From: Escherichia phage Gostya9
Direction: 5' to 3' (one strand)
Length of the DNA: 64,000 nt
Sequence record: NC_047979.1
Under the pieces are notes generated by a model. The model did no database searches and was not told the origin of the DNA. It worked only from the letters and a program-made list of their open reading frames with translations. This document shows positions 1 to 29,565 of the stretch, one piece after another. Numbering within the stretch: position 1 is the stretch's first letter; each line of letters opens with the position of its first letter. A program made the position numbers and the translations under genes.

Positions 1-30
1 CCCCCGTTACTATTACTCTGCTAACTATTT

Positions 31-59
31 CACCTTGCAACCATTTTAATTGCAAGGTG
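31..59 (-). other. 10-bp-stem inverted repeat downstream of dmp stop
   Basis: caccttgcaa...ttgcaaggtg seen in sequence; no clear U-run on either strand, so not called a terminator. Confidence 0.35.
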
Positions 60-80
60 AAACAATTTCAACTTTAATTA

Positions 81-812
81 TTACGCGACTTTTAATTTCT
101 CAATATATTGTTGTGGGCTGCAACTATATTCTGCGCGTTCTTCTTCGGTCATACCTTCCCAACATAATTGCAAGCGGTCGGCTAGGAACTGATAATCATT
201 ATCATCTTCAAGAGATTCATCAATAAAGGTTTCGCCGATCAATGTGACGCCTATTGATAGAATATCGTTAACGGCTTGCGCGTCCAGCGTTTTAAATCCA
301 TATGCCGCCGCCGCTGATAATACGCCTTTATGATCATCAATCATCGTGAAATCAGCGTTCGGATATAGCTGTTTGAATAGCTCAAAGTAATGGCTTTTAT
401 AAACAGCGTCTTTACTGTGGTATATCTCGCTAACCTTATCAGCCGAAAAATATTTGTGCAGTGTATCGCGGGAAAATACGCGGATATTGCTATTCCCTCG
501 CCCGCGCAGACCTTGCTTGCGTAGAAAATAATAATCTGATTTGCCCATCAGTCGAGCGGTGCAGATAATGTTTTGCGTGTTGCCGTCATTCATACACTGG
601 CGCATATAGGTAACTAGCGGCAAAAGCGTATCCTGCATTATTAACTCATGTTTGCACGCTTCATTTTTATACTTATTTAAATCTAAATCGCCTTCAATAT
701 CAAAGCAAGGCGCTACACGGTGAGCGGAGTTAATGATCGTGCCGTCCAGGTCCCAAATCATTACGCGGGAAATATGCGGGTAATTGCGGGTAATATTCGT
801 TACTTGATTCAT
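81..812 (-). CDS. dmp: 5'-deoxyribonucleotidase, HAD superfamily (Dmp-like)
   Basis: 243-aa ORF; HAD motif I DLDGT near N-terminus; size and terminal position match the T5 pre-early dmp gene (recalled, not searched). Confidence 0.75.
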   Translation of the reverse strand: MNQVTNITRNYPHISRVMIWDLDGTIINSAHRVAPCFDIEGDLDLNKYKNEACKHELIMQDTLLPLVTYMRQCMNDGNTQNIICTARLMGKSDYYFLRKQGLRGRGNSNIRVFSRDTLHKYFSADKVSEIYHSKDAVYKSHYFELFKQLYPNADFTMIDDHKGVLSAAAAYGFKTLDAQAVNDILSIGVTLIGETFIDESLEDDNDYQFLADRLQLCWEGMTEEERAEYSCSPQQYIEKLKVA

Positions 813-886
813 TTTGTTACGTTCTCCATTAAAGGGATAAAATTAATTTAATCCAGCCCACTGGACGGGCTGGAGTATTTCAGTCA

Positions 887-1303
887 TTAAAATGCCAGAC
901 CATAAGCCAAAGCATCAGCAACAAAACTAATATCCTCGCCTGATACGCTGGAACGAATACCGGCGCATGTAAATACTTTTGCAGTCATTAACTGATCATC
1001 AAGACAAGCGGGACAAGGCGCGACAACTGCGAAAGCTAGGCCAGCTTTTACGGCGTCAATGATAGTCGTCTCTTGTTTCATCATATCAATGTAAACGCCT
1101 TTCGCCTTGATACGGCTTGATAGCTTGCCCGTGGTATATGCGAAAGTAGTGACCTGTAGCGCCTCATTAAACTCCAGCAAATCATCAACAACGTGCCCCG
1201 CCTCGACGTGATACCGCTCACCATTAGAATAAACTAGGACGATTGCAGACTGCGCGCGATCGAATGGGATACGGTTGTAAGTAGTCATTTTTATAAACTC
1301 CAA
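887..1303 (-). CDS. hypothetical pre-early protein
   Basis: 138-aa ORF between A1-like gene and dmp; shares the TTAATTGGAG ribosome-binding context with neighbouring pre-early genes. Confidence 0.5.
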   Translation of the reverse strand: MEFIKMTTYNRIPFDRAQSAIVLVYSNGERYHVEAGHVVDDLLEFNEALQVTTFAYTTGKLSSRIKAKGVYIDMMKQETTIIDAVKAGLAFAVVAPCPACLDDQLMTAKVFTCAGIRSSVSGEDISFVADALAYGLAF

Positions 1304-1358
1304 TTAATTTAATAAACTTTTATAGCGGCGGTATATTTCAACCGCTCGCCTGATTTAT

Positions 1359-3023
1359 TTACGCGAAAAATTTGCCGTTTTTAAAGTCGATTAACGTGCG
1401 CTGCCCGTTCGCATATGTAATTACATGCGTTTGCGTCCAGCTTGATGCGCCCACGTTATAGCCCATGTCGAGGCTGCCCGATACGCCAGCAGTATATACG
1501 CCGCCGTAAATGCTGGCGGTATGGGTATGCCCCGTGTTTAATTTGCCCAACTTTTTAAACTGTTTCGGATTGCCACGACTCCCGTTAATGCCGTTGTGAC
1601 CGTGTACACCACACTCAATGCCTGCAATTTTAAATGATTGATCAGTGGTCAGGAAAATGGCGTTAAATTCACAACCTGCAACCTTACGTAGCGCATAATC
1701 AAGCACGTTGAAAGTATCGTCATTTTCTGCAATAGCTCCATAGATCGCGGCATTCAGGCGGTGATATAGTTCCGCGTTTGCTGGATCGTCTTTAATGTTA
1801 GCATTACGATCATCCAGCCAGCGAGATAGCGCCAGATCGTGGTTTGATTCAACGATGATTGTTTGCGAGAAATCGCGCTCCATTGATTCCAATACGCGGC
1901 CAGTATCAATGAGATCGTCCAGAACTTTATCACGTCCGGCGGCGTATTGTTTCGCTAGGAATACGCCCGATGCGCGGTTATGGTGGTTGCGTGATGTAAA
2001 GTCATGCACATCATGCACAAACTGATATTTTGGCTTGAGAATATCAAGCAAACTATTTTCGCCCGCCCATGACGCTGCGGCGCACGCCTTATCTAATTTT
2101 TCAGCGTGCACGTCGCCATACTGTAAACCTAAAACATGCCCCGATGTTTCATAGCATCCGGCGGGAGTGGCGCAAATATTCAAATCATAAAAAACGCCGG
2201 TTTCATCCATCGTCTCAAGCTGGCGAACAAAAAATGCCCCGTCCTCGTCGAACTCGACAATCAGCGCGCCAAAGTTATGTAACGCTTCGGCTTTTTGTCC
2301 TGCTTTCTGCTGAATGTAGTTTTTTAGCGTTGCCGCTCCCGTTGAGTACATACGGCGCACTACTTCACCTTTGAGCGCTGGGACACTTTCGGCGGTGATT
2401 TTTGCCGCTCCAATTGCCAGACCTTCAAGATCAAGCGCTGTTGCAGTCTCAGCGAATCCAGAAAGCGGATAGTCTGCCGTTGGCAAAACATTAATTTCAG
2501 CCATGAAAGCAAAGCGGCGATTATTTAAAAACACGTTTTTGCTGCAAATATATTTATCAAATACGGAGTCATATTTGATCCCGTCCGCGCCTTCTCCATT
2601 CTGGAATCCTTTTTTGTTATAAATGAACTTGCTAACCAGCAAATCAGCGCCGATAAATTGGGCGTAATGTTCAAGTGAGGCTAAAAAGTTTTTATGCGGG
2701 AACGTGTTGTTCTGGATTGATGTTATAATAAAGCGTTTACCCTGCTTTACTTCCCACTGTTCAACCGTGCTAGAAACAATACCCGCCGCCTCTGGGCGCT
2801 CGTCGTTTTTAATGGCTTTTTCTACTTTCGCCGCCTTTGGTTTCGCTGGTTTATTTGCTTCTAACCAATCACAGATCGCGGTGGAATGTTTTGTTGTATC
2901 GTACACCGCTTTTGATATATCGTCGCAGACTTCCAATCTAGTAGCGCGCAGACGTTTACCGTAAAAATTAAAATCAGCGGCCAGCTTCAGGATAACGGTT
3001 TGTTTTTCTGCGGAAATAACCAT
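1359..3023 (-). CDS. A1: A1-like pre-early protein with C-terminal metallophosphoesterase motifs
   Basis: 554-aa ORF; GVHGHNG and GHTHT phosphoesterase-type motifs near C-terminus; size close to T5 A1 as recalled (~556 aa). Confidence 0.75.
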   Translation of the reverse strand: MVISAEKQTVILKLAADFNFYGKRLRATRLEVCDDISKAVYDTTKHSTAICDWLEANKPAKPKAAKVEKAIKNDERPEAAGIVSSTVEQWEVKQGKRFIITSIQNNTFPHKNFLASLEHYAQFIGADLLVSKFIYNKKGFQNGEGADGIKYDSVFDKYICSKNVFLNNRRFAFMAEINVLPTADYPLSGFAETATALDLEGLAIGAAKITAESVPALKGEVVRRMYSTGAATLKNYIQQKAGQKAEALHNFGALIVEFDEDGAFFVRQLETMDETGVFYDLNICATPAGCYETSGHVLGLQYGDVHAEKLDKACAAASWAGENSLLDILKPKYQFVHDVHDFTSRNHHNRASGVFLAKQYAAGRDKVLDDLIDTGRVLESMERDFSQTIIVESNHDLALSRWLDDRNANIKDDPANAELYHRLNAAIYGAIAENDDTFNVLDYALRKVAGCEFNAIFLTTDQSFKIAGIECGVHGHNGINGSRGNPKQFKKLGKLNTGHTHTASIYGGVYTAGVSGSLDMGYNVGASSWTQTHVITYANGQRTLIDFKNGKFFA

Positions 3024-3120
3024 AATATTAAAACTCCATTAAAGGGATTAAGAACGTTTGTTATTGGCAAATATTGCCAAATATAACGCTGCTTATTAAC
3101 AGCGTTATAATTTGCAATAC

Positions 3121-3366
3121 TTAATTAAGCGGCATCAGGCTAGAACTAACACCACAAACAACGGCGGCAATAAAACAAAATAAGCCTAAACGCTTTGCCA
3201 GCTTTGACTTGCGTTTAAAATAATACGAATCCAGATCATTTTGGAAATATGCAAACAATAATGAGGCCGCCACAATAAATAAGCCTAGAATTAACGATTC
3301 AGTGGGATAAAAGATCATTTTAATAATTCCAGTTAAAGGGAAATTATAGTGGGGAGTATTCCCCAC
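3121..3366 (-). CDS. small membrane protein
   Basis: 81-aa ORF with two hydrophobic segments. Confidence 0.45.
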   Translation of the reverse strand: MGNTPHYNFPLTGIIKMIFYPTESLILGLFIVAASLLFAYFQNDLDSYYFKRKSKLAKRLGLFCFIAAVVCGVSSSLMPLN

Positions 3367-3375
3367 TAATTAAGT

Positions 3376-3792
3376 TTATTCACCTGCTGACTGTTTTACT
3401 TCATCTGCTACGCCTAGTAATTGCGCTACGGCGTCCAGCGTTTCTAATTTTGCGCTTTCCAGGCTTGCCAGATCGTCAGCGTCTTTGATAATGCCGGAAT
3501 CAATGGCGTGTTTTGCAATTACACGCACATAATGCGCCTTGCGGATTGAACTACCGCCGCCAACTTTGCGCGGTTTATCGCTTTTCTGATACGCTTTTGC
3601 GCTGGTCAATTTTGAGCGAACAGACACAGGGGAAGTAGCGCCCACTGTTTTGGCGATCTCTTTCAGGCCGTCGCTGTTGGCGAACTCAAGGCCGTTTTCA
3701 TTGATTAACTGCTGATACATAGAAACGGCTTTTTGGGTATTTTCTTCATTCCATGCAAATTTTGCGGATTTTTCGGTTTTAACGTTAGTCAT
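3376..3792 (-). CDS. putative HTH DNA-binding pre-early protein (possible A2-like)
   Basis: 138-aa ORF; helix-turn-helix-like segment LKEIAKTVGATSPVSVRSKL; conserved RBS context; A2 assignment is a guess. Confidence 0.45.
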   Translation of the reverse strand: MTNVKTEKSAKFAWNEENTQKAVSMYQQLINENGLEFANSDGLKEIAKTVGATSPVSVRSKLTSAKAYQKSDKPRKVGGGSSIRKAHYVRVIAKHAIDSGIIKDADDLASLESAKLETLDAVAQLLGVADEVKQSAGE

Positions 3793-3893
3793 GGTATAAA
3801 CTCCAATTAATTTAATTTAAGGGATAAGATTAACATAATGTTAATCGTTATATTTCCCCGAACTATTGGGGAAATATAAAGTTAACACTAAAC

Positions 3894-4145
3894 TTATGCT
3901 ACAGCTTCCCATTTTTCGTTACGCTGGGCAACCTTTACAACGTCGCCAGATTTAACGCGAACGCTAAAAACGGTTTTTCCGTTGTTGCTACGTTCCGTTT
4001 CTGCATATACTGCATCAATTACATCAAAAGGCATAAGCGCCGCGCCTTTGATGCGTTCGGCTTTTCCGGTTGCCTCGTCCGTTTTAGTAACGAAAGGGAT
4101 GAAAACGGATTGACCAATTTTTGGCGCGGTGATAGCGTTTTTCAT
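3894..4145 (-). CDS. hypothetical protein
   Basis: 83-aa ORF with GGAG RBS context upstream. Confidence 0.45.
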   Translation of the reverse strand: MKNAITAPKIGQSVFIPFVTKTDEATGKAERIKGAALMPFDVIDAVYAETERSNNGKTVFSVRVKSGDVVKVAQRNEKWEAVA

Positions 4146-5200
4146 GGTATAAACTCCAGTTATTTGATGGATTGTTCCGCATTACCTGCTAGAAAAGGGA
4201 TAACAGGTAATGGGTAACGATCCGTTCGCCGTTAAAATCAATTTAAGGAACTCCACACAGGCCGCTATATCCCGTTAGGGGGCGGGACACCTTATGGCAA
4301 GTGCCGGCCGTCAAATTGTACCAAGTTATTGCTCTTGTTGAATCGGGTACATCTTAAAGCCCATCGGCTAGGGTGTCAAATTATTTTTCGTTTTCTTTTA
4401 AATTAGAATTCTCCCAACTGAATTGCATCTCGCAAAATATTTTCCCATCTTTATGATGGTAAGATATTTCGCTCCCGTGGTTAGCACAAAAAGCGATCAC
4501 TGCCTCAGCTTGTTCCACCGTGATATTGTTAGCCGTTTCTTTGATTTTCATATCGTCGATTCCTTATAAGGTTAATAAGTTTGCCGCCGATAGGCTTTAA
4601 GGTGTACCTGATTTTTAAAGAGCGCGCGGCGGTAAACTCCCCGCCGTGTAGTCCGTTGCCGTCCTACGAGATAAATAATAGGGAATACCCAAAAATGGTG
4701 CAACCTTAATTTTGTAAAGAAATGTAAAGAAAGCAAATACTCGCACCGCGTCCGGTGATCGCCCAAGTTTAAAGGAAACGAGCGCGTGGATACCATAAAA
4801 CCGAGCTGATTGGCAAGTAATTTTTTCATTTTTATTTGCCTTGCCCTACTTGACAAATTCTAAAAAGCTCGTGGTGACGATAAACGGGCTGCCCCTTTAT
4901 GATGGGATACCTGAAAAAATTATCGCGTTAGAAAGCGTTTTTGGCCGCTTATTTTCGATTTAACAAATATTTAACAAAAGCAAAAATGAAAAATAGTTTG
5001 AAAAGGCATTGACTTTTAAAAATCAAGACTAAATGAGTTATTTTATAAAATTAATTAATTGACTTTTATTTGTTGTTGTGTAGTAGAAAGATAGCAGACT
5101 AATAATTACTAGAATGATAATCATGCTGGTGGGTTGTAACAGCCTGAACTATTAGCAGACTACTGATCCCGGAAAATATCATTAGCCAACTAACTATTCC

Positions 5201-5340
5201 ATAAGTTATAATAATTATAGAAATAATAACTATAGAAATAATAACTATAGAAATAATAACTATAGAAATAATAACTATAGAAATAATAACTATAGAAATA
5301 ATAACTATAGAAATAATAACTATAGAAATAATCACCGTTA
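5201..5340. repeat. 15-bp tandem repeat (TATAGAAATAATAAC), about 8-9 copies
   Basis: period-15 repetition read directly; produces the artefactual pentapeptide-repeat ORFs 5099..5350 and 5190..5414. Confidence 0.9.
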
Positions 5341-5394
5341 TAATAATCACTATAAGAAACTAATCGGCCTAAGTGAGAACCACTATCATTTAAG

Positions 5395-5486
5395 TTATCC
5401 ACAATGTTATCCACAGCACAAAATGATTTGACACGATAGGCGGCGATATAAGGACTTATCCACAGACTTATCCACAGGTTATCCTA
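5395..5486 (+). promoter_or_regulatory. cluster of four perfect DnaA boxes (TTATCCACA) plus one imperfect
   Basis: TTATCCACA at about 5395, 5407, 5456 and 5468, all same orientation; matches E. coli DnaA box consensus. Confidence 0.7.
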
Positions 5487-5504
5487 CTGTATATTTATAC
5501 AGGG
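5485..5504. promoter_or_regulatory. LexA (SOS) box-like palindrome
   Basis: TACTGTATATTTATACAGGG versus consensus TACTGTATATATATACAGTA; CTGT-N8-ACAG core intact. Confidence 0.6.
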
Positions 5505-5871
5505 TAAAAAGATAGTGTTTACAACTGCAATCAATTTTACGCGGCCTAAATCGCTTTCTAACGGGCTGATCGCTGTAGGGTAATATTAAAGTAAAGCCTC
5601 CAGCCGTTGCCCTGGAGGCTTCGCCGTGGTTTGCTCTTTACTGCACCGCTGCGCGGTTAGCATAAAACTAGGTGTTAGGCAAGAAAATAAAAAGTAAAGT
5701 AAACGTTGCCCCTAGAAAGAAAATAATTTTACCGGTAACATCGAAAGCGGGTAATAATTAACCTAGTGTAAAGTTTTGTAAGGCCAGCCATAATCGGCGG
5801 CCTTTATTGTTATAATGCCCTTACACCGTTTAAGGACGGTTAAAAATTTCCCACTAACTAGGAGAAGAAAA

Positions 5872-6051
5872 ATGGTTATTTTTCGATCTGTTCTGGCCGG
5901 TATCTTGGGCGCTATTCTGACTCTTTTTGCTACCGCTTACGGTATCCAGGATTCTTATTGTGGTTTAGTAAATACTAAACCGATGGTTATTATTGGCGCG
6001 GGTATCGCTGTTTTTTCTTATCTGCTGGGCTGCATGAATAAAGGGGAATAA
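5872..6051 (+). CDS. small membrane protein
   Basis: ATG preceded by AGGAGAAG RBS; 59 aa, two hydrophobic segments; first gene of a 4-gene plus-strand mini-operon. Confidence 0.45.
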   Translation: MVIFRSVLAGILGAILTLFATAYGIQDSYCGLVNTKPMVIIGAGIAVFSYLLGCMNKGE

Positions 6052-6052
6052 A

Positions 6053-6265
6053 ATGATCCGTAACGTTTCCCTTGCTCGTTCCAAAGGTTTTAAGCTGGTG
6101 GATGTAAACACGTTCGAGCGTCCTGATTGTAAAATCGAATATGTAGCGCGGAATAAAAACGCCTTTCGCGTTACAGAAAAGAGATTCGATAAGCGCGGCA
6201 ACATGATAATTGAAACGGTTAAATATTTTGCCACCTTTTACGCGGCCTTTCGTGGGGTACTATGA
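6053..6265 (+). CDS. hypothetical protein
   Basis: 70-aa ORF; start overlaps upstream stop (TAAAATG). Confidence 0.4.
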   Translation: MIRNVSLARSKGFKLVDVNTFERPDCKIEYVARNKNAFRVTEKRFDKRGNMIIETVKYFATFYAAFRGVL

Positions 6266-6369
6266 AGAGCGTTGTTATTGTTATCCTTGCAATGGTTGGC
6301 GGTTTTACTGCCACCTTATTAAAAAATGATCCTCTTTTATTGGGGGTTTTTATGCTTTTATCTGGTTAT
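6262..6369 (+). CDS. small hydrophobic protein (35 aa)
   Basis: ATG overlapping upstream stop; hydrophobic sequence; below the ORF-track size cutoff. Confidence 0.3.
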
Positions 6370-6388
6370 CTGATCGGGAGGTTATAAA

Positions 6389-6733
6389 ATGGTGATTTAT
6401 GAAGGTGATCGCTTTATTGCTGATTGCCGTCCGGCATTGTTAGCAAACTATTTAAATCAGCTTTCGCCAGTATATAAAGGCGTCCTAAATATTTATGAAG
6501 GTGAGGCGCATTATAAGGTCAATGCGGTCGTCGCCCGTGAACTAGCGTTTCAATTTTTGACCTTTGCATCTTGCGGTATTCAGGTCATGGGTGAAGCGTT
6601 AATAGCAGAAAATGAAGATGATTTTATTAATATCTTCCGCAAAATATGCACCGAGCGCCTGATAATGAAAGGGGCGTATATTCAATCAACTGCGGATAGT
6701 ATTGAAACGGCTTTTAGAAAGGGGGCACAATGA
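6389..6733 (+). CDS. hypothetical protein
   Basis: 114-aa ORF preceded by GGGAGG RBS. Confidence 0.45.
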   Translation: MVIYEGDRFIADCRPALLANYLNQLSPVYKGVLNIYEGEAHYKVNAVVARELAFQFLTFASCGIQVMGEALIAENEDDFINIFRKICTERLIMKGAYIQSTADSIETAFRKGAQ

Positions 6734-6859
6734 AGCTATATATTTTCGCGGGTAATGTTGAGGCTGCAAATGATTCCGCTGGTGGCGATAACGTTCGCCA
6801 TTATTGGCAAAATTATATTTACTAGGCGTAATAATCACGGGGCACAACTATCAGGGAGT

Positions 6860-6892
6860 GCCCCTGATTCTCAAATGAGAATGATTCTCATT
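6860..6892. repeat. palindrome AAATGAGAATGATTCTCATTT
   Basis: perfect inverted repeat; related palindromes recur at 7355-7380, 7553-7575 and 7588-7615. Confidence 0.7.
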
Positions 6893-7095
6893 TGACCGCG
6901 CCCGCTATGGTTAGCCTGCTAATGATTAGGGTGTTACGTGTCACCTTGCGTGATCGTTAGCCTGCAAATGATTAGCCTGCAAATGATTTGACCGCGCCCG
7001 CGATGGTTAGCCTGCAAATGATTAGCCTGCAAATGATTAGCCTGCAAATGATTAGGGTGTTATTTGTCGCCTTGTGTGATGGTTAGCGGGCTAAC
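6889..7095. repeat. two copies of a ~75-100-bp direct repeat containing 15-bp subrepeats (GATTAGCCTGCAAAT)
   Basis: TTTGACCGCGCCCGC..GGTTAGCCTGC..AGGGTGTTA unit seen twice with 2-3 tandem 15-mers inside. Confidence 0.8.
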
Positions 7096-7213
7096 TAATT
7101 TTCAAGCCTTCTTCAATTTTGCCCTTGTTTTAGTATCCCCACCAAAATAAAACGCGTTAGAAAGCGATTCAGGGCGTTTTAGGCCTATATTAGAATTATT
7201 CACTGCGTAGGAA

Positions 7214-7233
7214 TACTGTATAAATATACAGTA
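7214..7233. promoter_or_regulatory. LexA (SOS) box-like palindrome
   Basis: TACTGTATAAATATACAGTA, one mismatch to the LexA consensus; exact reverse complement of the 19-bp segment at 5484-5502. Confidence 0.65.
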
Positions 7234-7242
7234 GAATAACCT

Positions 7243-7323
7243 GGGGATAAGTCGGTGGATAACGCTTCAAAATGGCTAGAATTTTGTCAAGGCAAATCGT
7301 GCTGTTGATAAGTCTGTGGATAA
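7243..7323 (-). promoter_or_regulatory. DnaA-box cluster, opposite orientation to the 5395 cluster
   Basis: TGTGGATAA perfect at about 7315; GGTGGATAA and weaker GGGGATAAG / TTGATAAG nearby. Confidence 0.55.
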
Positions 7324-7340
7324 CTTAAATAACAGTGTTT

Positions 7341-7620
7341 CTCACTTCCGTTTTTAAATGCGAATCATTATCATTTGCACTCCACTTCTTGAATAGTTCT
7401 CATTCCACTTCTTGAATAGTTCTCATTCCACTTCTTGAATAGTTCTCATTCCACTTCTTGAATAGTTCTCATTCCACTTCTTGAATAGTTATCATTCCAC
7501 TTTTTAAATGATAATCATTCCACTTCTTAAATGATAATCATTTCACTTTTTAAATGAGAATGATTATCATTCGCATTCCACTTCTTAAATGCGAATCATT
7601 CTCATTCGCATTTAGGCGAG
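7341..7620. repeat. 23-bp tandem repeat array (CCACTTCTTGAATAGTTCTCATT, about 9 units with variants) containing palindromic sub-sites
   Basis: five near-identical units followed by diverged units; embedded palindromes AAATGCGAAT..ATTCGCATTT. Confidence 0.85.
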
Positions 7621-7636
7621 CAGGGCAATTGCCCTG
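7621..7636. repeat. perfect 16-bp palindrome CAGGGCAATTGCCCTG
   Basis: read directly. Confidence 0.7.
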
Positions 7637-7643
7637 CGCTTAT

Positions 7644-8443
7644 GTGCAAATCCGACAATTGCTCCAAGGGTTACGCGTGGGCATGTATGTGCAAATCCGA
7701 CCCATTTTTTGGTAGTGTGCAAATCCGACCCTAAAAATTTATAAATTCGTGAGAGTGACGAATCTGTCTCCCAAAAACTCCAGCAATCACGAACTGCGTT
7801 CGAATCCTGTGGGGTATGTGCAAATCCGACACGGTTTTTCTAGGATTAAGATGTGCGAATCCGATGAAATTTTTGTGACTTCGATGAGAGGGTGTGTGAT
7901 TGTATAGGTTTGAGGAGAAGGTGAGAGAGCGGGAGAAATTTTGGGACTAGAAGGATGTGGGCGCAGGATTGGTGCGGAGCACCTGATTTGCGGGGGTTTT
8001 GGGGGATAGTTGAGGTAATTTGGGGAAATTTGAGATAGGTGCAGAAAAAGTAAAATTTTATTAGCTAAATGGGGCAAAATAGCTTGACGAGTGAAAATTC
8101 TTGTGGCTCTAAAAACTCAGGCAATCACGGGCCTTCGGCCCGAAATAATGCTGCCATTTTCAGGAGATTATATGTTCCTAAAAACTTAGGCGTTTGTGCA
8201 AATCCGACCATAAGTTTCTAGAAACACAATGTACAAAACCGACAGTAATTTCTGGGAATGTGTTTTCAAAAAATGTCTTCTAGAAATAACCGCCCTCCCT
8301 ATAACCGCCCTATATTAACCGCCTATGCTAGAGTTTCTAGGAACAATGAAAACTGCCCTAGAATTTGTGCAAATCCGATGAATATTTCTGTGTGATCTCT
8401 AGAATTTATACTTATCAATTTCCTAGAATATGTGCAAATCCGA
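7644..8443 (+). repeat. dispersed direct repeat family TGTGCAAATCCGA(C/T), at least 8 copies, same orientation
   Basis: copies near 7644, 7688, 7716, 7817, 7853 (variant), 8194, 8365 and 8430; frequently followed by a T-run; one extra copy inside CDS at about 10107. Confidence 0.8.
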
Positions 8444-8495
8444 TGAATATTTTTGTGTGATCTCTAGAATTTATGCTTATCAATTTCCTAGAAAC
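8358..8495. repeat. ~70-bp tandem duplication
   Basis: TGTGCAAATCCGATGAATATTT..TCTCTAGAATTTAT..CAATTTCCTAGAA present twice in tandem with 3 substitutions. Confidence 0.8.
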
Positions 8496-8891
8496 TTAGG
8501 AGTCTGCTAGAAAGTGTTGAGCCATCCTAGCAGATGAGCGGCAACCGGTGTATCATCTTGAACACAGATATTGCCTTTAAATTTTTTATCAGTTATTTTT
8601 AAATATAAGATCCCCCAAGGTTCTCATATAGAGCTTTGCCCCCGCCAGAAGGTCTCGTGATGTTTCTAGTAATCTTTATTAAATTACCTATTGACTTGTC
8701 CTGTCGCTCCGTAACCTACGCTACAAGTCAGTAATTTAAGATTCCTGAACCACCACACCTTCTGTGTGGCAACTCTAAATGGTTAATTCTATTAACTCAT
8801 AGAGTTATGATAACATACATTTAGCTATCTGTCAACGAGAGTTTGTATTATTGTCTCGGTACAGGTATTGTGCACCGAGACTTGCAGAGTA

Positions 8892-9776
8892 TTATAATAA
8901 TTCTTGGTATGCTTTTTGATACGCCTCAGTATCTGTAGGTGTACCTTTTGCTAACGCAATTAGTTCATCCGTTATCTGAATATTCGTATTATAACGTGTG
9001 TGGAACTCGTCAGGGATTTCTAGATATCTATTTATGAACGCTGCAGCAAGCGGTGAAGCTACACCCATTTCTAGAACCCATCCAACATGGTTTTCAAACT
9101 TCAGATAAGGGGAATCAGATGGGGTTGGTGGGGTTACATCAATTTTCTCTGGTTCTTTTTCTGGAAGCAATGGATTACTATATAATGCTTCATCTGGAAG
9201 CACAGATTTACGCTCTTTAAATATATAAGTTTCTAGATCAGATGCCTTAGATCCTGAGTACACAGCAAAAACGCTAGCTTTACCTTGTGATGCCCTAACT
9301 GGTAGATAACTAGTAGGATAGCTTCTTAATGCATCATGGAATGGACTTCCTGAATATTTGTACGTATCTCCATAGAGATCATCAATATTCATTCGTTCAT
9401 CTTCAAAAATGTGAAATGACTTAAATGGTGGAATGGTGAAGTACTCCATCTGTAATCCATAAACTAAGAAACGATGTGCATATGCACTGATTTTTAAGAC
9501 TGTGAATGCTTTTTCACCTTCTTTATGGGCATTGCCCTTTGAAGTAACTGGGTAACGTTTACAAAACATCTCTACTAGACGTTTCTCATTAATATTGAGT
9601 GAGGAATATAAACGTCCATTTAGCCCTATAAGTGCATCGAACATAAATGCTAGTTTATCTTTTTCTTCTTGGGTTAGTCCAGGAAACGGAAGTACTTTAG
9701 CATTAGGAACACTATTATTCTCTTTAGGTTTTGTTTTACCAGCATTTTGTCTTAGTTTATCTTTAAAGTTATACAT
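8892..9776 (-). CDS. hypothetical protein
   Basis: 294-aa ORF; GGGAG RBS upstream; no motif recognised. Confidence 0.55.
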   Translation of the reverse strand: MYNFKDKLRQNAGKTKPKENNSVPNAKVLPFPGLTQEEKDKLAFMFDALIGLNGRLYSSLNINEKRLVEMFCKRYPVTSKGNAHKEGEKAFTVLKISAYAHRFLVYGLQMEYFTIPPFKSFHIFEDERMNIDDLYGDTYKYSGSPFHDALRSYPTSYLPVRASQGKASVFAVYSGSKASDLETYIFKERKSVLPDEALYSNPLLPEKEPEKIDVTPPTPSDSPYLKFENHVGWVLEMGVASPLAAAFINRYLEIPDEFHTRYNTNIQITDELIALAKGTPTDTEAYQKAYQELL

Positions 9777-9793
9777 TATTATCTCCCATTTTT

Positions 9794-9828
9794 AAGGTCT
9801 GGATGACCTTCTTTTTATTTTAGAGCCT
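9794..9828 (+). terminator. rho-independent terminator-like hairpin oriented on plus strand
   Basis: AAGGTC-TGGAT-GACCTT followed by CTTTTTATTTT; a second hairpin GAGCCTC-CGTA-GAGGCTC lies at 9831-9849. Confidence 0.45.
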
Positions 9829-9853
9829 CCGTAGAGGCTCATGTATTAGAGGG

Positions 9854-10450
9854 TTAACTACCTCTCTTATCTTCATTAATAACAGCTCCTAGTGCCCCCA
9901 TAATTGCATCTTCTATACTTCCATGCTTACTAGGATTGCTTAAGTGAATAGTATATGAGTTCCTAGAAACTCCAGAGTCCACAGGCGCTACGCTTTTCAT
10001 ATCAGACTCAAAAGCTTCTTGAGTATGTTTCAATTGTGCAGAAGGTCCATAATCTTCCCCAAACTTATATGACTGTGTACTACTTACCGCACCCCCACAT
10101 GGAACATTGTGCAAATCCGATGGATTATTTAACAGTGCAATGCCACTTCTCGGCCACAGGTCACTAACATGGGTACTAGGACGGTTAACCTCAGTCTTCA
10201 CAAGTTTATAACCAGCATCGATCAGTGCATTAATAAGGTTATCAGCTGGAATGCGAGCCTTGCCGAAAATCTCACGAGCGTTGTTGAGCCTACCTTCAAA
10301 ACCTTTACATGCTCTAATATTAGTGTGTGCAAAGGTTAGCTTCATAGATTTGAATTGTACAGTAGCAGTTAAATCTTTAAAGCTATAATCCCACGTATTC
10401 AGTTCATGATCTGGTACTACTTGAATAGATTGTTGTGCATATAAAGTCAT
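9854..10450 (-). CDS. hypothetical protein
   Basis: 198-aa ORF; contains an internal copy of the TGTGCAAATCCGA motif. Confidence 0.55.
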   Translation of the reverse strand: MTLYAQQSIQVVPDHELNTWDYSFKDLTATVQFKSMKLTFAHTNIRACKGFEGRLNNAREIFGKARIPADNLINALIDAGYKLVKTEVNRPSTHVSDLWPRSGIALLNNPSDLHNVPCGGAVSSTQSYKFGEDYGPSAQLKHTQEAFESDMKSVAPVDSGVSRNSYTIHLSNPSKHGSIEDAIMGALGAVINEDKRGS

Positions 10451-25325: not shown

Positions 25326-25510
25326 TAGCTCTCCTGTTTGGTAGTTAGTAGGGGGTTTTGAACCACTGTAGTCGCTCCGTATGAAGGAGGTGCATAACCA
25401 CTCTGCCAACTAACTAGTATGTTTTACTAGACTAAGTAAGTATTCTTTATACTCTTTAGACCAGCTAGCTTTTTAAACTTTCCTGGACGCATAGTCTTAA
25501 TTCCTAGATT

Positions 25511-25587
25511 TGGTACTCCGGGAGGGATTTAAGCCCCCGATCTCTCGGTTATCAGCCGAGTGCTTTAGATCGCTAAGCTACCGAAGT
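25511..25587 (-). tRNA. tRNA, tentative Ile (anticodon GAU); atypical T-loop
   Basis: 7-bp acceptor complementarity, anticodon stem CTCGG/CCGAG with loop CTGATAA, encoded CCA; hand-folded. Confidence 0.4.
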
Positions 25588-25602
25588 ATTAAAATATTTA
25601 CA

Positions 25603-25893
25603 TCACACACTGTCTAAGTAAGAAGTATAATGGAATTTAGTTTCTCCAGTCTTATCTACTTCTACCTCAGTTCGTGGTACTTGATGAACCACACCATGAA
25701 TCATCTTATAGCGAATGCCTTTAGCTGGTTCATGATCTTTTGGAAATACTTGTTTAACCGTTACTACTTTATATCCTTCACGCGGTGTTAACACTACTAC
25801 TTGATCCCCCTCTTTGATTTTCCAAGAGGGTGGGAATTCATAGGTGTATCTTTGGCCACCGGTTTGGAACATAACAGAAAGATAACGTTTCAT
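25603..25893 (-). CDS. hypothetical protein
   Basis: 96-aa ORF downstream of promoter 25924-25952. Confidence 0.45.
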   Translation of the reverse strand: MKRYLSVMFQTGGQRYTYEFPPSWKIKEGDQVVVLTPREGYKVVTVKQVFPKDHEPAKGIRYKMIHGVVHQVPRTEVEVDKTGETKFHYTSYLDSV

Positions 25894-25923
25894 TTGGTTT
25901 CCCTCTCATTAATTTATATAAAT

Positions 25924-25952
25924 ATTATAGCAATAAATAAGAGAGAAAGCAA
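25924..25952 (-). promoter_or_regulatory. sigma70-type early promoter
   Basis: TTGCTT-17-TATAAT on minus strand. Confidence 0.65.
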
Positions 25953-25967
25953 ATGAATTTTTAAACT

Positions 25968-26043
25968 TGGTGCGGGATACGAGAGTCGAACTCGTGTCTA
26001 CTGGTTGGAAGCCGGTTATTCTAGCCGCTGAACTAATCACGCA
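25968..26043 (-). tRNA. tRNA, tentative Gly (UCC)
   Basis: CCA + acceptor + T-arm GTTCGACTC; anticodon loop CTTCCAA; hand-folded. Confidence 0.5.
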
Positions 26044-26053
26044 TTAATTTGGC

Positions 26054-26131
26054 TGGCAGGGGATATTGGATTTGAACCAATGATCTCGACTTCAAATGCC
26101 GTAGCTTTAGGCCAAGCTAAGCTAATCCCCA
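26054..26131 (-). tRNA. tRNA, tentative Gln (UUG)
   Basis: T-arm ATTGG-TTCAAAT-CCAAT; anticodon loop ATTTGAA; unpaired 1-72 as in tRNA-Gln. Confidence 0.5.
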
Positions 26132-26137
26132 ATTGTT

Positions 26138-26231
26138 TGGCAGAAGGTAGTGGATTTGAACCACTGATCAGGATTTCAGAGACCTCGGCCTTAACCGACT
26201 TGGCTCAGGTTCTTCAAGGCGCTTACCTTCA
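26138..26231 (-). tRNA. tRNA-like element with canonical 3' half; 5' boundary and anticodon unresolved
   Basis: CCA, acceptor 3' strand and T-arm GGTTCAAATCC are clear; D-arm GCC-AAGTCGGTTAA-GGC present but acceptor closure is ambiguous; overlaps 3' end of ORF 26168..26377. Confidence 0.3.
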
Positions 26232-26377
26232 TGATCTACTCGAATGACTCCGCATCCTTCGCAAACCACAACTGCACCATAACCTTCTTTGACTTCGGCT
26301 TCTGTAATCAGACCAGATAAGTCACCAGTATCTCTGCCCCACATATCAATGGAGCATTGTTTGCAGAAATCAGCCAT
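26168..26377 (-). CDS. small zinc-ribbon protein (uncertain)
   Basis: 69 aa with CKQC..CEGCG; C-terminal tail overlaps a tRNA-like element. Confidence 0.35.
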   Translation of the reverse strand: MADFCKQCSIDMWGRDTGDLSGLITEAEVKEGYGAVVVCEGCGVIRVDHEGKRLEEPEPSRLRPRSLKS

Positions 26378-26379
26378 AA

Positions 26380-26607
26380 TTAATCCTTATTACAAGTGGT
26401 AGAGAGGATGGTACGATCGGAGATCCAACCGCCAGTGTAAGCACCATTGACTTTATATTCAGTCAAAGTACCGTGACCACGAATAGCGAAAACTGTTAGG
26501 GTTTTCGTGCCCCCATAACCATCTTTAACAGTTACGGTACAATCTAATGATGTGCCGATAGTGCAGCCAGCTAAAGTCAGAGCAGCAATCAATACTAAGT
26601 ATTTCAT
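26380..26607 (-). CDS. small lipoprotein
   Basis: 75 aa; signal peptide with lipobox LAGC. Confidence 0.5.
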   Translation of the reverse strand: MKYLVLIAALTLAGCTIGTSLDCTVTVKDGYGGTKTLTVFAIRGHGTLTEYKVNGAYTGGWISDRTILSTTCNKD

Positions 26608-26630
26608 GTTGTTATCCTTGTTAAGTTAAT

Positions 26631-26703
26631 TGGTGCATCCTCAGGGAATCGAACCCCAATCGTAAAGTTCGTGGCTTTACATTCTTTCCATTGAAATAAG
26701 GAC
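26631..26703 (-). tRNA. tRNA, tentative Arg (ACG)
   Basis: CCA + acceptor GCGTCCT/AGGATGC; anticodon loop CCACGAA; hand-folded. Confidence 0.4.
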
Positions 26704-26711
26704 GCAATATT

Positions 26712-26788
26712 TGGGGTGGCTAGTGGAATTCGAATCCACATAGGCCTGATTCACAATCAGGATCATTAACCAATTATGATATAGCCAC
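26712..26788 (-). tRNA. tRNA-His (GUG)
   Basis: perfect 7-bp acceptor, T-arm GTGGA-TTCGAAT-TCCAC, anticodon stem CCTGA/TCAGG with loop TTGTGAA. Confidence 0.6.
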
Positions 26789-27011
26789 AATTGAAAACTC
26801 GCAGGGTTAGCGAAACCATCCTCAATTAGCATGTCTAGAATACTAATCAAGTTATCTCCTATTGCATGCAGCTCAAGACGAGTACGAATTTTCAATTGTG
26901 GCGGCTCTCCGAAACTCTTCTATTCTAGTCCCAGAAGCTTACTCCCGAACGCATGTCGGGGAAGTCTTTCCAAGCGCACCAAATAGCACCGTTACACTTT
27001 GAGCCATTATT

Positions 27012-27106
27012 TGGAGGTAGGTAAGGGGATCGAACCCTTACACCGTATCACTACGATCAACCGATTTCAAGTCGGAGTCCAGCGCCAGCCGTTGGATTGA
27101 CCTACC
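27012..27106 (-). tRNA. tRNA-Ser (UGA), type II
   Basis: 95 nt; perfect acceptor GGTAGGT; anticodon loop CTTGAAA; long variable arm. Confidence 0.5.
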
Positions 27107-27118
27107 ATATAAATTGTT

Positions 27119-27209
27119 TGGCGGAAGAGGAGAGATTTGAACTCTCAAGCCGTTTTACCAGTCAGCCACTTTCCAAGCGGTTTTCGTCGCCAATTCGATT
27201 TGCTCTTCC
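27119..27209 (-). tRNA. tRNA-Ser (GGA), type II
   Basis: 91 nt; perfect acceptor GGAAGAG; anticodon loop TTGGAAA; long variable arm. Confidence 0.5.
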
Positions 27210-27321
27210 AATCATAAGATGATGCCTCTATCACGCCAGGCAGTTACGCCTCGCTGGGATTCGAACCCATTAAAACAGCTCAACCGAGATAGTAGGTTTA
27301 ATTTACTCTGACCATCAAATT

Positions 27322-27398
27322 TGGTGCGTGACAAGGGATTCGAACCCTCAAAACCCGACTTCTAGGGACGGTATGTATGCCAATTCCATCAATCACGC
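27322..27398 (-). tRNA. tRNA, anticodon unresolved (loop CCUAGAA)
   Basis: CCA + acceptor GCGTGAT/GTCACGC + T-arm AAGGG-TTCGAAT; anticodon stem has one mismatch. Confidence 0.45.
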
Positions 27399-27406
27399 GT
27401 ATTTTG

Positions 27407-27477
27407 TGGAGAAAGAGGGAGTTGAACCCTCGTCTTCTGCGTGCAAAGCAGATGTTCTACCATTAAACTATATCCCC
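27407..27477 (-). tRNA. tRNA-Ala (UGC)
   Basis: anticodon stem TCTGC/GCAGA with loop TTTGCAC; G3-U70 wobble pair present; CCA not encoded. Confidence 0.55.
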
Positions 27478-27714
27478 AAATTCTTTAGTTTACTAAGGCT
27501 ATTAGCTCGGCGTAACTACAGCACCTTCGCTTCGAGCGGAAGGAACCGCGTCATCTCGCAAACCCGATACACTATTCAGTTGCCGCTGAATCTAGTGGAC
27601 TAATCTAGAACTTCTCCCGAGTCGTAGGATCGTGCTTTTTGGCAGCCAGTCCTAGGTCGAGCTAATACCTTAGTGAACTATGATGAGGATTTCTCCCCAT
27701 CAATTTATATAAAT

Positions 27715-27743
27715 ATTATAACAAGAAATTAAGCATCAAGCAA
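27715..27743 (-). promoter_or_regulatory. sigma70-type promoter heading the tRNA / small-RNA unit
   Basis: TTGCTT-17-TATAAT on minus strand; no protein gene downstream before tRNAs. Confidence 0.6.
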
Positions 27744-27761
27744 ATGAGTTTTTCTTGAAAT

Positions 27762-27837
27762 TGGTAGCGGGTTCCAGTACTGCCCTGGACTTACTTAGCT
27801 TATGAGACTAAGAAGAACTCTATGCCTTCCACCCGCA
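27762..27837 (-). tRNA. tRNA, tentative Met/Ile2 (CAU); atypical T-loop
   Basis: CCA + acceptor; anticodon stem CTTAGT/GCTAAG with loop CTCATAA; T-loop GGCAGTA non-canonical. Confidence 0.4.
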
Positions 27838-27843
27838 ATTATT

Positions 27844-27907
27844 TGGTCAGTGCGGCAGGACTCGAACCTGCGACCCGAATCATCCAGGGATCCCACGCTA
27901 CGCACTG
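27844..27907 (-). tRNA. truncated tRNA-like element (64 nt)
   Basis: perfect 7-bp acceptor CAGTGCG/CGCACTG, CCA and canonical T-arm GCAGG-TTCGAGT-CCTGC, but only 29 nt between them. Confidence 0.3.
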
Positions 27908-27915
27908 AAATTTTA

Positions 27916-28263
27916 TTAGTTTAACCGTAAAGTATTATCTACTTCACCATTAATTGTTCGGCATTCCTCTGGGATTGTCGGAGTGGCCTTGTATTCCCAC
28001 CACTCAGCACCATCATATTCCCCACGTTCTAGCCAAGTTCCATCGGCAAACCATACATTACCATAAAGTAATTGTCCACCGTATCCAGAATCATATTCAA
28101 AGTCTAGGTTATTAAGAAAATCCCCAATATCTTCTTCTGTATAACCTAAAGGTAATACCCAAACTTTTTTGTCCCCATAATACCCGAATTCTATTTTAAT
28201 ACACTTAACTTTAGAATTGGTATTTTTTAAGGCGAGTAGCAGCTCTTCTTTAGCATTACGCAT
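27916..28263 (-). CDS. hypothetical protein
   Basis: 115-aa ORF. Confidence 0.45.
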   Translation of the reverse strand: MRNAKEELLLALKNTNSKVKCIKIEFGYYGDKKVWVLPLGYTEEDIGDFLNNLDFEYDSGYGGQLLYGNVWFADGTWLERGEYDGAEWWEYKATPTIPEECRTINGEVDNTLRLN

Positions 28264-28288
28264 AGTATATTCTCATACTGAGTTAATT

Positions 28289-28362
28289 TGGCGCGACCGA
28301 TGGGATTTGAACCCACATTCCCCGTGACAGGGGAGTACCATTACCAAGCCAGCCCCTGTCGC
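28289..28362 (-). tRNA. tRNA-Asp (GUC)
   Basis: anticodon loop CTGTCAC flanked by CTCCC/GGGGA stem; T-arm GGGTTCAAATCCC; CCA encoded. Confidence 0.55.
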
Positions 28363-28371
28363 ATAATTCAT

Positions 28372-28557
28372 TTACTCATATTTGAGTTTTTCAATAGCTG
28401 CATTAAGTTCTTTTAGAGCTTCACGACGTTCTACCTGACCTTGAAGTTCTTCAAGAAGTTCCGCTTTCAGAGTCTCAATAATTTTACCACGAACCTTGAT
28501 ATTATTAATCAGATTATCACGATCAGCTTCTAGTCGAGCAATTGCATGAGTTGTCAT
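28372..28557 (-). CDS. small coiled-coil protein
   Basis: 61-aa ORF. Confidence 0.4.
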   Translation of the reverse strand: MTTHAIARLEADRDNLINNIKVRGKIIETLKAELLEELQGQVERREALKELNAAIEKLKYE

Positions 28558-28584
28558 ATCTATTTCCTCAGTTATTAATGAAAA

Positions 28585-28658
28585 TGGTATCTGTGGCTGA
28601 ATTTGATGTCAGCAATGATAGCTGGTTGGCTACCGGTTTACTTAACTCTACACAGAAT
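28585..28658 (-). tRNA. tRNA, anticodon unresolved
   Basis: CCA + acceptor + T-arm GCTGA..TCAGC; candidate anticodon loop TATCATT. Confidence 0.4.
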
Positions 28659-28659
28659 T

Positions 28660-28740
28660 TGGCGGGCCGTGTAGGATTCGAACCACCAACCCCGAAGGGC
28701 ACGGATTTACAGACCGCTGCAATAGCCATTCTGCCAACGA
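28660..28740 (-). tRNA. tRNA-Tyr (GUA)-like, type II; acceptor closure not confirmed
   Basis: anticodon loop CTGTAAA, variable arm CCC-TTCG-GGG, T-loop TTCGAAT and CCA; no complementary 5' acceptor strand found. Confidence 0.4.
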
Positions 28741-28939
28741 TGTACATTTAAAAGTATTCAAATACTTGTTTAAACACTTTTAAATATGTTTCCAACTTAG
28801 ATAACTATTATATCTAGTTTTAAGGCACTGAGCAAGTCAGATTTTGAAGAATTTGCTCAGTGCTATATTAGTTAGTCGAACTTAGGAGTAACAATTAAAG
28901 AGAATGGGAGTTCGAAAACTTCATCAATTTATACAACTA

Positions 28940-28969
28940 TTATACCAGAAATTTAAAGCAAAAGGCAAG
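28940..28969 (-). promoter_or_regulatory. sigma70-type promoter (weaker -35 TTGCCT)
   Basis: TTGCCT-18-TATAAT on minus strand, upstream of a tRNA pair. Confidence 0.5.
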
Positions 28970-28998
28970 TACATTTTTAAAAATTCTGTTCGGAGGAG

Positions 28999-29205
28999 CT
29001 AAACTCCAGATTCTTCAGCCAAGTCTAGACTAATAAGAGTTATAGCCATAATTGCTGCACCGTGTTCTTTTTCTCCGGTGTTTTTAGCAGAGTCTATAAT
29101 ACCCTTAATCTGTTCGTAATAACTTTTTACTTCTTGTTCAATGCCCGCCTCGGCTATCATGCCTTTAGTCATGAGTCGTTGCATGGTAATTTCACGGTTA
29201 GCCAT
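28999..29205 (-). CDS. hypothetical protein
   Basis: 68-aa ORF; start overlaps stop of an upstream unlisted small ORF. Confidence 0.4.
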   Translation of the reverse strand: MANREITMQRLMTKGMIAEAGIEQEVKSYYEQIKGIIDSAKNTGEKEHGAAIMAITLISLDLAEESGV

Positions 29206-29365
29206 GATGTTTCTCCAGCTTCATTTTTAATAGTTTACAGATGAAATCAACGTCTTCATCCGTGCCTAAGTCTCTATCCCCAAGGGTCGCCTTGAAGTTT
29301 TTCGTTAGTTCCATAAGAATAACTTCCCTAGAACGACGTGTTGGCGGAGGTGGATGTCTATACAT
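29199..29365 (-). CDS. small Pro-rich protein (about 55 aa)
   Basis: ATG after AAGGA RBS; stop overlaps next start (ATGGCTAA); below ORF-track cutoff. Confidence 0.3.
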
Positions 29366-29380
29366 CTTATTTCCTTAATT

Positions 29381-29455: not shown

Positions 29456-29461
29456 TATGTT

Positions 29462-29550: not shown

Positions 29551-29565
29551 GAATTTATAAGATAT

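Follow-up and report, generated by a model that had tools for sequence, protein, structure and literature searches.

The first 4,150 bp of the Escherichia phage Gostya9 DNA examined here (NC_047979.1; a window of 64,000 nucleotides) hold a leftward operon of six genes that corresponds to the pre-early operon of phage T5 and that differs from the other genes of the window in two respects. Its synonymous codon usage is close to that of Escherichia coli and nearly devoid of the arginine codons AGA and AGG, and its start codons are preceded by a stereotyped translation-initiation module. We consider it likely, and the best explanation of both features, that the operon is built for fast and independent translation by an untouched host machinery.

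A megablast search of positions 1 to 9000 against phage records returns 546 matches headed by Escherichia phages DT571/2 and DT57C, which are 93.6% identical in nucleotide sequence across positions 1 to 8428, no record being closer; T5 has 87.5% nucleotide identity in the first-step-transfer (FST) region with gene order unchanged. By these alignments the window is that of a T5-like phage (Tequintavirus), and its first base corresponds to base 44 of DT57C and T5, so that only about 44 bp at the left genome end precede it. Read leftward, the genes at 81 to 4145 (minus strand) are T5.007, A2, T5.005, A1, T5.002, and dmp, all on a single strand and orthologous gene for gene, in matching order, to the left-terminal-repeat operon of T5, DT57C, and their relatives. 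Its distance to the left genome end equals that in T5 and DT57C, and homologues of the iss repeat region follow it. These correspondences support its assignment as the leftward pre-early operon of FST DNA, and the sequence-only reading, which had proposed a first-step-transfer operon with dmp, A1, and partners and a comparison with T5, is supported by gene content, order, and orientation alike.

All six proteins are matched in PHROG and Pfam scans. The first gene of the operon is the T5.007 homologue (DUF7177; 3894 to 4145; 83 aa; Pfam PF23801, E=6e-42; PHROG 3747), with a G+C fraction at third codon positions (GC3) of 0.405. It is followed by A2 (3376 to 3792; 138 aa; PHROG 1725, E=8e-52; DT57C gp005; GC3 0.446), a DNA-binding protein needed for second-step transfer, by the T5.005 small membrane protein (3121 to 3318; 65 aa; PHROG 4820, E=3e-32; GC3 0.364), and by the DNA transfer protein A1 (1359 to 3023; 554 aa; PHROG 1745, E=6e-242; GC3 0.461), which is 98.2% identical to DT57C A1. 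The T5.002 homologue (887 to 1288; 133 aa; PHROG 4576, E=5e-78; DT57C gp002; GC3 0.433) has no assigned function, and the last gene, the orthologue of T5.001 and DT57C gp001, is dmp (81 to 812; 243 aa; PHROG 415, E=1e-54; GC3 0.443), coding for deoxynucleoside-5'-monophosphatase. The T5 operon reads T5.007-A2-T5.005-A1-T5.003-T5.002-dmp; relative to T5, Gostya9 lacks T5.003, the P-H22 segment, and the homing endonuclease gene hegG (at 1289 to 1358 and 4381 to 4900). A 56-aa open reading frame (ORF) at 4381 to 4551 occupies the position of hdi and keeps the start context of T5.008, but we do not call it hdi because its protein has no significant similarity to T5.008.

In the T5 annotation the block lies inside the 10.2-kb left terminal repeat, labelled as first-step-transfer DNA. 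The right genome end of Gostya9 is outside the window, and its terminal repeat is estimated from alignments to DT571/2, in which the repeat is 8085 bp (the distance between the two A1 copies in the contig), and to T5, whose repeat end maps near 8110. The FST DNA would then extend to about 8040 to 8110, and positions 1 to 4150 are only its left half. The T5 iss region (9140 to 10149) aligns to 7122 to 8039 with 79% identity, and by homology this segment, which has tandem repeats and DnaA boxes, is the Gostya9 counterpart.

The Demerecviridae as a whole have A1, A2, and dmp among their core genes, and the rest of the T5 genome is known to enter only given A1 and A2. In T5, dmp, A1, and A2 probably form one operon served by the strong promoters P-D/E20 and P-H22, and twelve other pre-early genes are dispensable (bioRxiv 10.64898/2026.04.02.716235). 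Tequintavirus pre-early genes are expressed while the cell holds FST DNA only, as is known for T5 and Bas33 (PMC13250531). By homology to T5, the Gostya9 block is probably co-regulated and pre-early in its timing.

The G+C content is 0.434 in 1 to 4150 and 0.390 in the rest of the window. Among 1198 sliding 4150-bp windows the block ranks 18th, about 2.7 standard deviations above the mean, and all those ranking higher overlap it, with the peak (0.438) at 201 to 4350; the most GC-rich 1.5 kb of the entire window (1001 to 2500; 0.474) is that of the A1 gene. This is the richest stretch of its size in the window, but its bulk excess is a modest 4.4 points, for which "markedly more GC-rich" is too strong. 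At synonymous sites the difference is large. Pooled G+C at first, second, and third codon positions is 0.534, 0.380, and 0.443 in the six genes and 0.515, 0.357, and 0.321 in the 68 other genes of at least 80 aa, which we use as the bulk set throughout, and the rise in GC3 is significant (Mann-Whitney p=2e-4), so that quantitative analysis does find a compositional difference. The non-coding DNA of the block is only 31% G+C, compared with 36% outside the terminal repeat. An excess at third positions together with AT-rich intergenic DNA points to an effect on synonymous codons and not to regional base composition.

Synonymous usage in the six genes correlates with that of E. coli (42 annotated K-12 genes, 14,748 codons) at r=0.81, compared with 0.56 for the bulk genes, a value not attained by any of 2000 equally large sets drawn at random from the bulk (maximum 0.73 against the 0.81 of the operon). 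A second codon table gives the same picture when used as the reference (r=0.88 for the block and 0.67 for the bulk). AGA and AGG together account for 1 of the 48 arginine codons in the operon and 195 of 615 in the bulk (p=7e-7). Usage of GCG (0.32 versus 0.08), ACG (0.30 versus 0.08), CGC (0.62 versus 0.11), and GGC (0.51 versus 0.14) is higher in the six genes and that of AUA is lower (0.07 versus 0.17). The rise is not general to codons ending in G or C, as TAC, TTC, and AAG fall and AGG is absent. Twelve tRNA genes, including tRNA-Arg(TCT), are located in the second-step DNA (25339 to 32481, minus strand). The tRNA-Arg(TCT) matches AGA, which the pre-early operon avoids, and one tRNA-Ser is called with the unusual anticodon ACT; T5 is reported to carry more tRNAs than these twelve.

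We compared this signature across 54 loci with A1 relatives from IMG/VR and several GenBank relatives. Of the arginine codons of the six-gene operon, about 46 per genome, only 0 to 2 are AGA or AGG in about 30 distinct genomes of Tequintavirus and Epseptimavirus, where A1, A2, T5.007, T5.002, and dmp have GC3 values of 0.34 to 0.56, with T5.005 variable; the Sugarlandvirus operon has 2 to 3 AGA or AGG in 48. That these codons stay at 0 to 2 of 46 while synonymous sites diverge by about 13% argues for continuing purifying selection. In T5, codon usage is closer to the host than that of the bulk in nearly all of the 17 pre-early genes, hegG being an exception, and in Aeromonas phage AhSzq-1 the GC3 values of A2, A1, and dmp are above those of all 35 baseline ORFs.

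The second signature lies immediately upstream of the start codons, where the sequence-only reading had described a near-identical context. On the minus strand the upstream contexts are tATCCCTTTAATGGAGaacgtaacaaaATG (dmp), TTAAATTAATTGGAGTTTATAaaaATG (T5.002), aATCCCTTTAATGGAGTTTtaatattATG (A1), TTCCCTTTAACTGGAAttattaaaATG (T5.005), ATCCCTTAAATTAAATTAATTGGAGTTTATAccATG (A2), and aaATAACTGGAGTTTATAccATG (T5.007). The layout is an (A/T)TCCCTT box (the CCC box, which four of the six genes have), an A/T-rich spacer, the 4-nt Shine-Dalgarno (SD) sequence GGAG, 8 to 11 A/T-rich nucleotides, and ATG. The complete modules, all on the minus strand, are ATCCCTTTAATGGAG, 11 nt, and ATG for dmp (813 to 838), ATCCCTTTAATGGAGTTT, 7 nt, and ATG for A1 (3024 to 3048), ATCCCTT, a 13-nt A/T spacer, TTGGAGTTTATACC, and ATG for A2 (3793 to 3825), and ATAACTGGAGTTTATACC and ATG for T5.007 (4146 to 4163). 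T5.002 (1289 to 1312; TTAAATTAATTGGAGTTTATA, 3 nt, ATG) has no CCC box, and T5.005 (3319 to 3342; TTCCCTTTAACTGGAA, 8 nt, ATG) has GGAA in place of GGAG. A related context is thus present at all six starts, with T5.005 departing from the GGAG form.

Exact repeats of 11 to 21 nt are shared among the block starts. The sequence TGGAGTTTATA occurs three times (0.07 expected), the 13-mer CCCTTTAATGGAG twice (0.002 expected; dmp and A1), and a 21-mer twice (5e-7 expected; A2 and T5.002), in every case at block starts. Across positions -35 to -1, the longest common substring averages 9.7 nt among the 15 pre-early pairs and 5.25 nt among pairs of the 85 other genes, whose 95th percentile is 7 (p=6e-10). 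TGGAG serves as the SD in five of six pre-early genes and 8 of 85 others (p=1.5e-4), and GGAG in five of six and 26 of 85, while AGGA, the commonest SD form elsewhere (43 of 85), is found at none of the six. A (T/C)CCC box 6 to 17 nt upstream of GGAG is present at four of the six starts and in 8 of 85 other genes, and CCC box and GGAG are combined in 4 of the 85 other genes of the same genome. Predicted folding of the -30 to +30 region is also weaker in the pre-early genes (mean -3.6 versus -6.5 kcal/mol, p=0.016). A further ATCCCTT is located at 4195 to 4201 (minus strand) in the T5.007 leader, about 40 nt upstream of the T5.007 module and within the loop of a predicted hairpin (ttacctg..caggtaa). 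An Rfam scan of 1 to 9000 (E<=1) finds no RNA family, the only hit being a sub-threshold match to the small RNA family C0465 (4284 to 4351, plus strand; E=0.28, 26 bits where the gathering score is 40) that is probably due to chance.

The module is retained in relatives, surveyed here across Tequintavirus, Epseptimavirus, Sugarlandvirus, and two lineages with 65 to 67% A1 identity. Nearly every operon gene fits the consensus (A/T)(T/C)CCC(T/A)(T/A), 3 to 17 A/T-rich nucleotides, GGAG, 7 to 11 A/T-rich nucleotides, and ATG. In Sugarlandvirus and the two more distant lineages, box and GGAG are present at 12 of 13 starts by hand count, with spacers that cannot be aligned. Three alleles of the hairpin upstream of dmp have been exchanged around an invariant ATCCCT and GGAGAA, and TTCCCTT follows each of the two hairpin alleles known upstream of T5.005, which are unrelated to one another; relatives carry GGAG at this gene. 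Many relatives have ATCCCC(T) 10 to 12 nt upstream of the T5.007 GGAG, and at T5.002 a CCC box, in most cases reading ATCCCTT, stands about 14 nt upstream in the majority. The box is missing from T5.002 only in Gostya9, DT57C/DT571-2, and one other locus (L026), where the A1-T5.002 junction is unlike that of T5 and without T5.003. The persistence of box and GGAG after turnover of the spacer argues for function over plain copying.

The five spacers within the operon are 74, 70, 97, 57, and 101 nt long, and each contains one or two hairpins. All on the minus strand, these are at 853 to 873 (T5.002/dmp), 1324 to 1349 (A1/T5.002), 3064 to 3109 (T5.005/A1; two, at 3082 to 3109 and 3064 to 3080), 3347 to 3368 (A2/T5.005), and 3828 to 3877 (T5.007/A2; two, at 3850 to 3877 and 3828 to 3846). 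The TTGGCAA..TTGCCAA hairpin of the T5.005/A1 spacer is retained out to Sugarlandvirus. Two hairpins are backed by compensatory changes, from T-A to C-G at A2/T5.005 in Epseptimavirus and Sugarlandvirus and from G-C to A-U at T5.002/dmp, where other phages carry a different hairpin. None of the hairpins is a canonical intrinsic terminator, as they have mixed A/T tails in place of T tracts and none passes a minus-strand terminator scan; a 13-bp hairpin past the dmp stop, at the end of the operon (28 to 62, minus strand), likewise has no T tract and is not scored as a terminator. A promoter before each gene is also rejected, as there are no minus-strand sigma-70 candidates at the spacers and the TATAAT-like runs that follow the hairpins have no usable -35. 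A candidate sigma-70 promoter for the operon is located at 4351 to 4379 (minus strand; TTGACA, 17 nt, TAAGAT; 10 of 12 consensus positions) and would give a leader of about 200 nt (4146 to 4343). It sits at a position matching T5 P-D/E20, which partly overlaps hdi (bioRxiv 10.64898/2026.04.02.716235). The GenBank P-D/E20 fragment of T5 aligns to 4003 to 4325, which makes the assignment uncertain, and T5 P-H22 has no match in the Gostya9 window.

These features suggest how the operon may work. Judging from T5, host RNA polymerase would start at strong promoters upstream of 4146 and transcribe the operon into one long polycistronic mRNA. The gaps of 57 to 101 nt with their stable hairpins argue against coupled translation, such that every cistron would need its own initiation site, and the stereotyped module could provide for quick parallel initiation by unmodified host ribosomes on six cistrons. 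Host-like codons are most likely kept because high-level translation would run on host tRNAs only; AGA and AGG, the rarest host codons, would stall heavy translation, and the phage tRNA genes, including tRNA-Arg(UCU) at 25 to 32 kb, would arrive only after A1 and A2 have acted.

Several observations weigh against this explanation. The rightward pre-early genes of Gostya9 (T5.013, T5.014, a 41-aa ORF, and T5.015; 5815 to 6733, plus strand) have AGA or AGG at 7 of 21 arginine codons, the bulk frequency, with a GC3 of 0.38, and in T5 the rightward genes T5.011 and T5.016 have 3 of 8 and 2 of 5, respectively. As these genes use AGA and AGG in the same tRNA-poor phase, timing alone is insufficient, and the extra assumption of higher expression or essentiality of the A1/A2 operon must be added. 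The rightward genes also have no CCC-box module, and their stops and starts overlap or abut, by which they are probably translationally coupled. Within the leftward operon, T5.005 is the sole gene of the six without raised GC3. The CpG ratio (rho) is 1.49 in the block, 0.73 in the bulk genes, and 1.16 in E. coli, and the GpC ratio is 1.65, 1.09, and 1.23 in the same order, so that the block moves toward the host and overshoots it in both, and its dinucleotide distance to E. coli (0.143) is no smaller than that of the bulk (0.153), for which reason we reject the simpler statement that the block is E. coli-like DNA. The pattern in distant phages is uneven, with A1 alone standing out in GC3 in Klebsiella phage FZ41 and Vibrio phage D386, and given this mixed result among A1-bearing phages we do not claim raised GC3 as a trait of the family. 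Finally, neither the CCC box nor the module has significant complementarity to E. coli 16S rRNA when set against shuffled controls; pairing beyond the SD is rejected, the one candidate being a 6-nt TCCCTT/AAGGGA match at nucleotide 451 that is no better than in shuffles.

The composition could alternatively reflect ancestry and not selection. The dinucleotide signature of the block is unlike both the bulk genome and E. coli, GC3 varies among close relatives (dmp 0.34 to 0.44, A2 0.37 to 0.56) as mosaic exchange would have it, A1 is high in GC3 in phages of very different hosts, and the bulk-like usage of hegG in the T5 FST region indicates that genes retain the signature of their origin. Yet A1, A2, and dmp, being core genes of the Demerecviridae, have had ample time to ameliorate, mosaic exchange does not explain why AGA and AGG avoidance is maintained in some 30 genomes, and the intergenic DNA of the block is AT-rich; we regard ancestry as an unlikely account of the composition. 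A further possibility is that mutation or repair is biased across the terminal repeat as a region, for example through GC-biased gene conversion from one copy to the other. This would suit the position of the block in a duplicated segment, the remainder of which is slightly high in G+C (39% for the non-coding DNA of 4151 to 8040, together with the GC3 of the rightward genes). Against such a bias, the non-coding DNA of the block is below the genome's own level in G+C, and the excess is specific to certain codons at third positions, with the falls in TAC, TTC, and AAG and the absence of AGG described above. On the AT-rich non-coding DNA we reject regional GC bias, to which we attach very little probability.

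The start contexts may similarly derive from common descent, as an ancestral cassette homogenized by recombination in which only GGAG matters and the CCC box and flanks are without function. Identities of about 15 to 22 nt (21 nt for A2 and T5.002, 15 nt for dmp and A1) are what copying would leave, and T5.002 functions here without a CCC box, as does T5.003 of T5. We nonetheless think it improbable that descent is the whole account, since box and GGAG outlast spacers that cannot be aligned as well as swaps of hairpins, and their combination is rare in other genes. A different proposal is that the CCC box and GGAG form an RNA element dedicated to regulation, whether recognized by a trans-acting factor or acting by itself; the specificity of the module to this operon and its conservation can be cited in favour. 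The element may be the target of a coordinated post-transcriptional shut-off of pre-early genes in the manner of T4 RegB and RegA. The T4 endoribonuclease RegB targets GGAG in the SD sites of early mRNAs, and the likeness is that one temporal class uses GGAG while other classes mostly have AGGA or GAGG; to our knowledge no RegB-like nuclease has been described in T5-like phages, and no search aimed at one was made here. Alternatively, the box may be a weak mimic of the anti-SD, with UCC(C) pairing to GGA(G). This pairing recurs in RNAfold and RNAalifold predictions, and the Klebsiella T5.005 carries CTCC, a perfect complement of GGAG, but it is marginal and the average degree of pairing in the SD regions does not exceed that in other genes; as UCCC and GGAG are both invariant, there is no covariation between them. 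The element may also be a boxA-like NusB/NusE site that keeps RNA polymerase resistant to termination through the hairpins. A hairpin followed by CCCUUUAAC recalls the boxB-boxA order of rrn operons, and the boxA consensus core is GCUCUUUA(ACAA). The likeness is best at T5.005 (UCCCUUUAACUG), which has CUUUAAC in common with boxA and CCC for CUC; the core CUCUUU is thus replaced by CCCUUU, and other sites diverge further. The spacing between box and GGAG also varies from 6 to 17 nt. An A1-dependent shut-off of pre-early synthesis is known, but as reported it works on transcription (bioRxiv 10.64898/2026.04.02.716235). A dedicated regulatory element is in our judgement quite unlikely, and we give an equally small chance to its corollary, that the module lets a trans-acting factor of phage or host act on all essential pre-early cistrons together, which could take the form of translation shut-off, cleavage after second-step transfer, or termination resistance through the hairpins. 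Translation by untouched host machinery is the reading that we prefer for codons and module alike.

The codon pattern has a precedent in the stage-specific codon usage of tRNA-carrying phages, in which the first-expressed genes are nearer to host codons and later ones match the phage tRNAs. Cowe and Sharp reportedly described codon usage of T4 early versus late genes in 1991, and Mioduser et al. (2017; PMC5683454) surveyed early and late phage codons in general, with T5 unmentioned in the main text. In contrast to these cases, the split in Gostya9 follows the physical entry of the DNA, the tRNA genes being outside the cell in the first phase, and it is limited to one of two pre-early operons. 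The module resembles the leader of T7 gene 10, which has the epsilon enhancer UUAACUUUAAGAAGGAGAUAUACAUAUG; each would serve very highly expressed phage genes. Both have an A/U-rich leader with CUUUAA or UUAAC just 5' of GGAG, and in both about 8 nt of A/U-rich spacer (..UAUAC..) separate GGAG from AUG. They differ in that the full epsilon 9-mer is absent here, the SD is only 4 nt, and the conserved CCC box is not present in T7. An epsilon-type UUAACUUUA is not found upstream of the SD, where only the 6-nt fragments TTAACT and CTTTAA occur, and the module has no significant complementarity to nucleotides 458 to 466 of 16S rRNA or elsewhere.

Other features of the window lie mostly beyond the operon. 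Sixteen early genes have a common promoter-leader, TATAAT-N5-8-(A/T)TA(A/G)ATT followed by a purine-rich SD and ATG, located at 14096, 14601, 16398, 17216, 21776, 24051, 25929, 30130, 33243, 34089, 35416, and 37009 on the minus strand and at 47602, 54371, 56583, and 57758 on the plus strand; none is in FST DNA. The -10 box is only about 35 nt before the start codon, and the leaders fit published T5-type early promoters with an AT-rich +1 region, TAAATT (PMC3326045). Tandem repeat arrays are located in non-coding FST DNA and just past it, at 5208 to 5332 (15 bp, 8.3 copies, 99% identity), 6890 to 7055 (15/50-bp arrays), 7381 to 7612 (23 bp, 7.6 copies), and 8357 to 8493 (65 bp, 2.1 copies). There are five perfect DnaA-box 9-mers (TGTGGATAA, the complement of TTATCCACA; 0.6 expected), four of them clustered between the divergent pre-early units (5395 to 5476, minus strand) and one at 7315 to 7323 (plus strand).

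The operon itself is already known and belongs to a textbook system, which the codon partition and the CCC-box module refine incrementally. We found neither in the literature searched, where nothing came up on how T5 pre-early genes use codons, on their GC content, or on their ribosome-binding sites, and an earlier description is possible. Both details are of interest to T5 specialists and leave the general picture unchanged. The CCC-box/GGAG module, being specific to the operon, may be usable for strong polycistronic expression or may be a control point for pre-early shut-off, and if the regulatory reading were true, then together with AGA and AGG avoidance two-step entry would split the T5 genome into two translational regimes. 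The codon partition amounts to a natural experiment on phage tRNAs, with one operon avoiding AGA and AGG and the rest of the genome using them for a third of its arginines, and it is relevant to the long-standing debate over the purpose of phage tRNAs.

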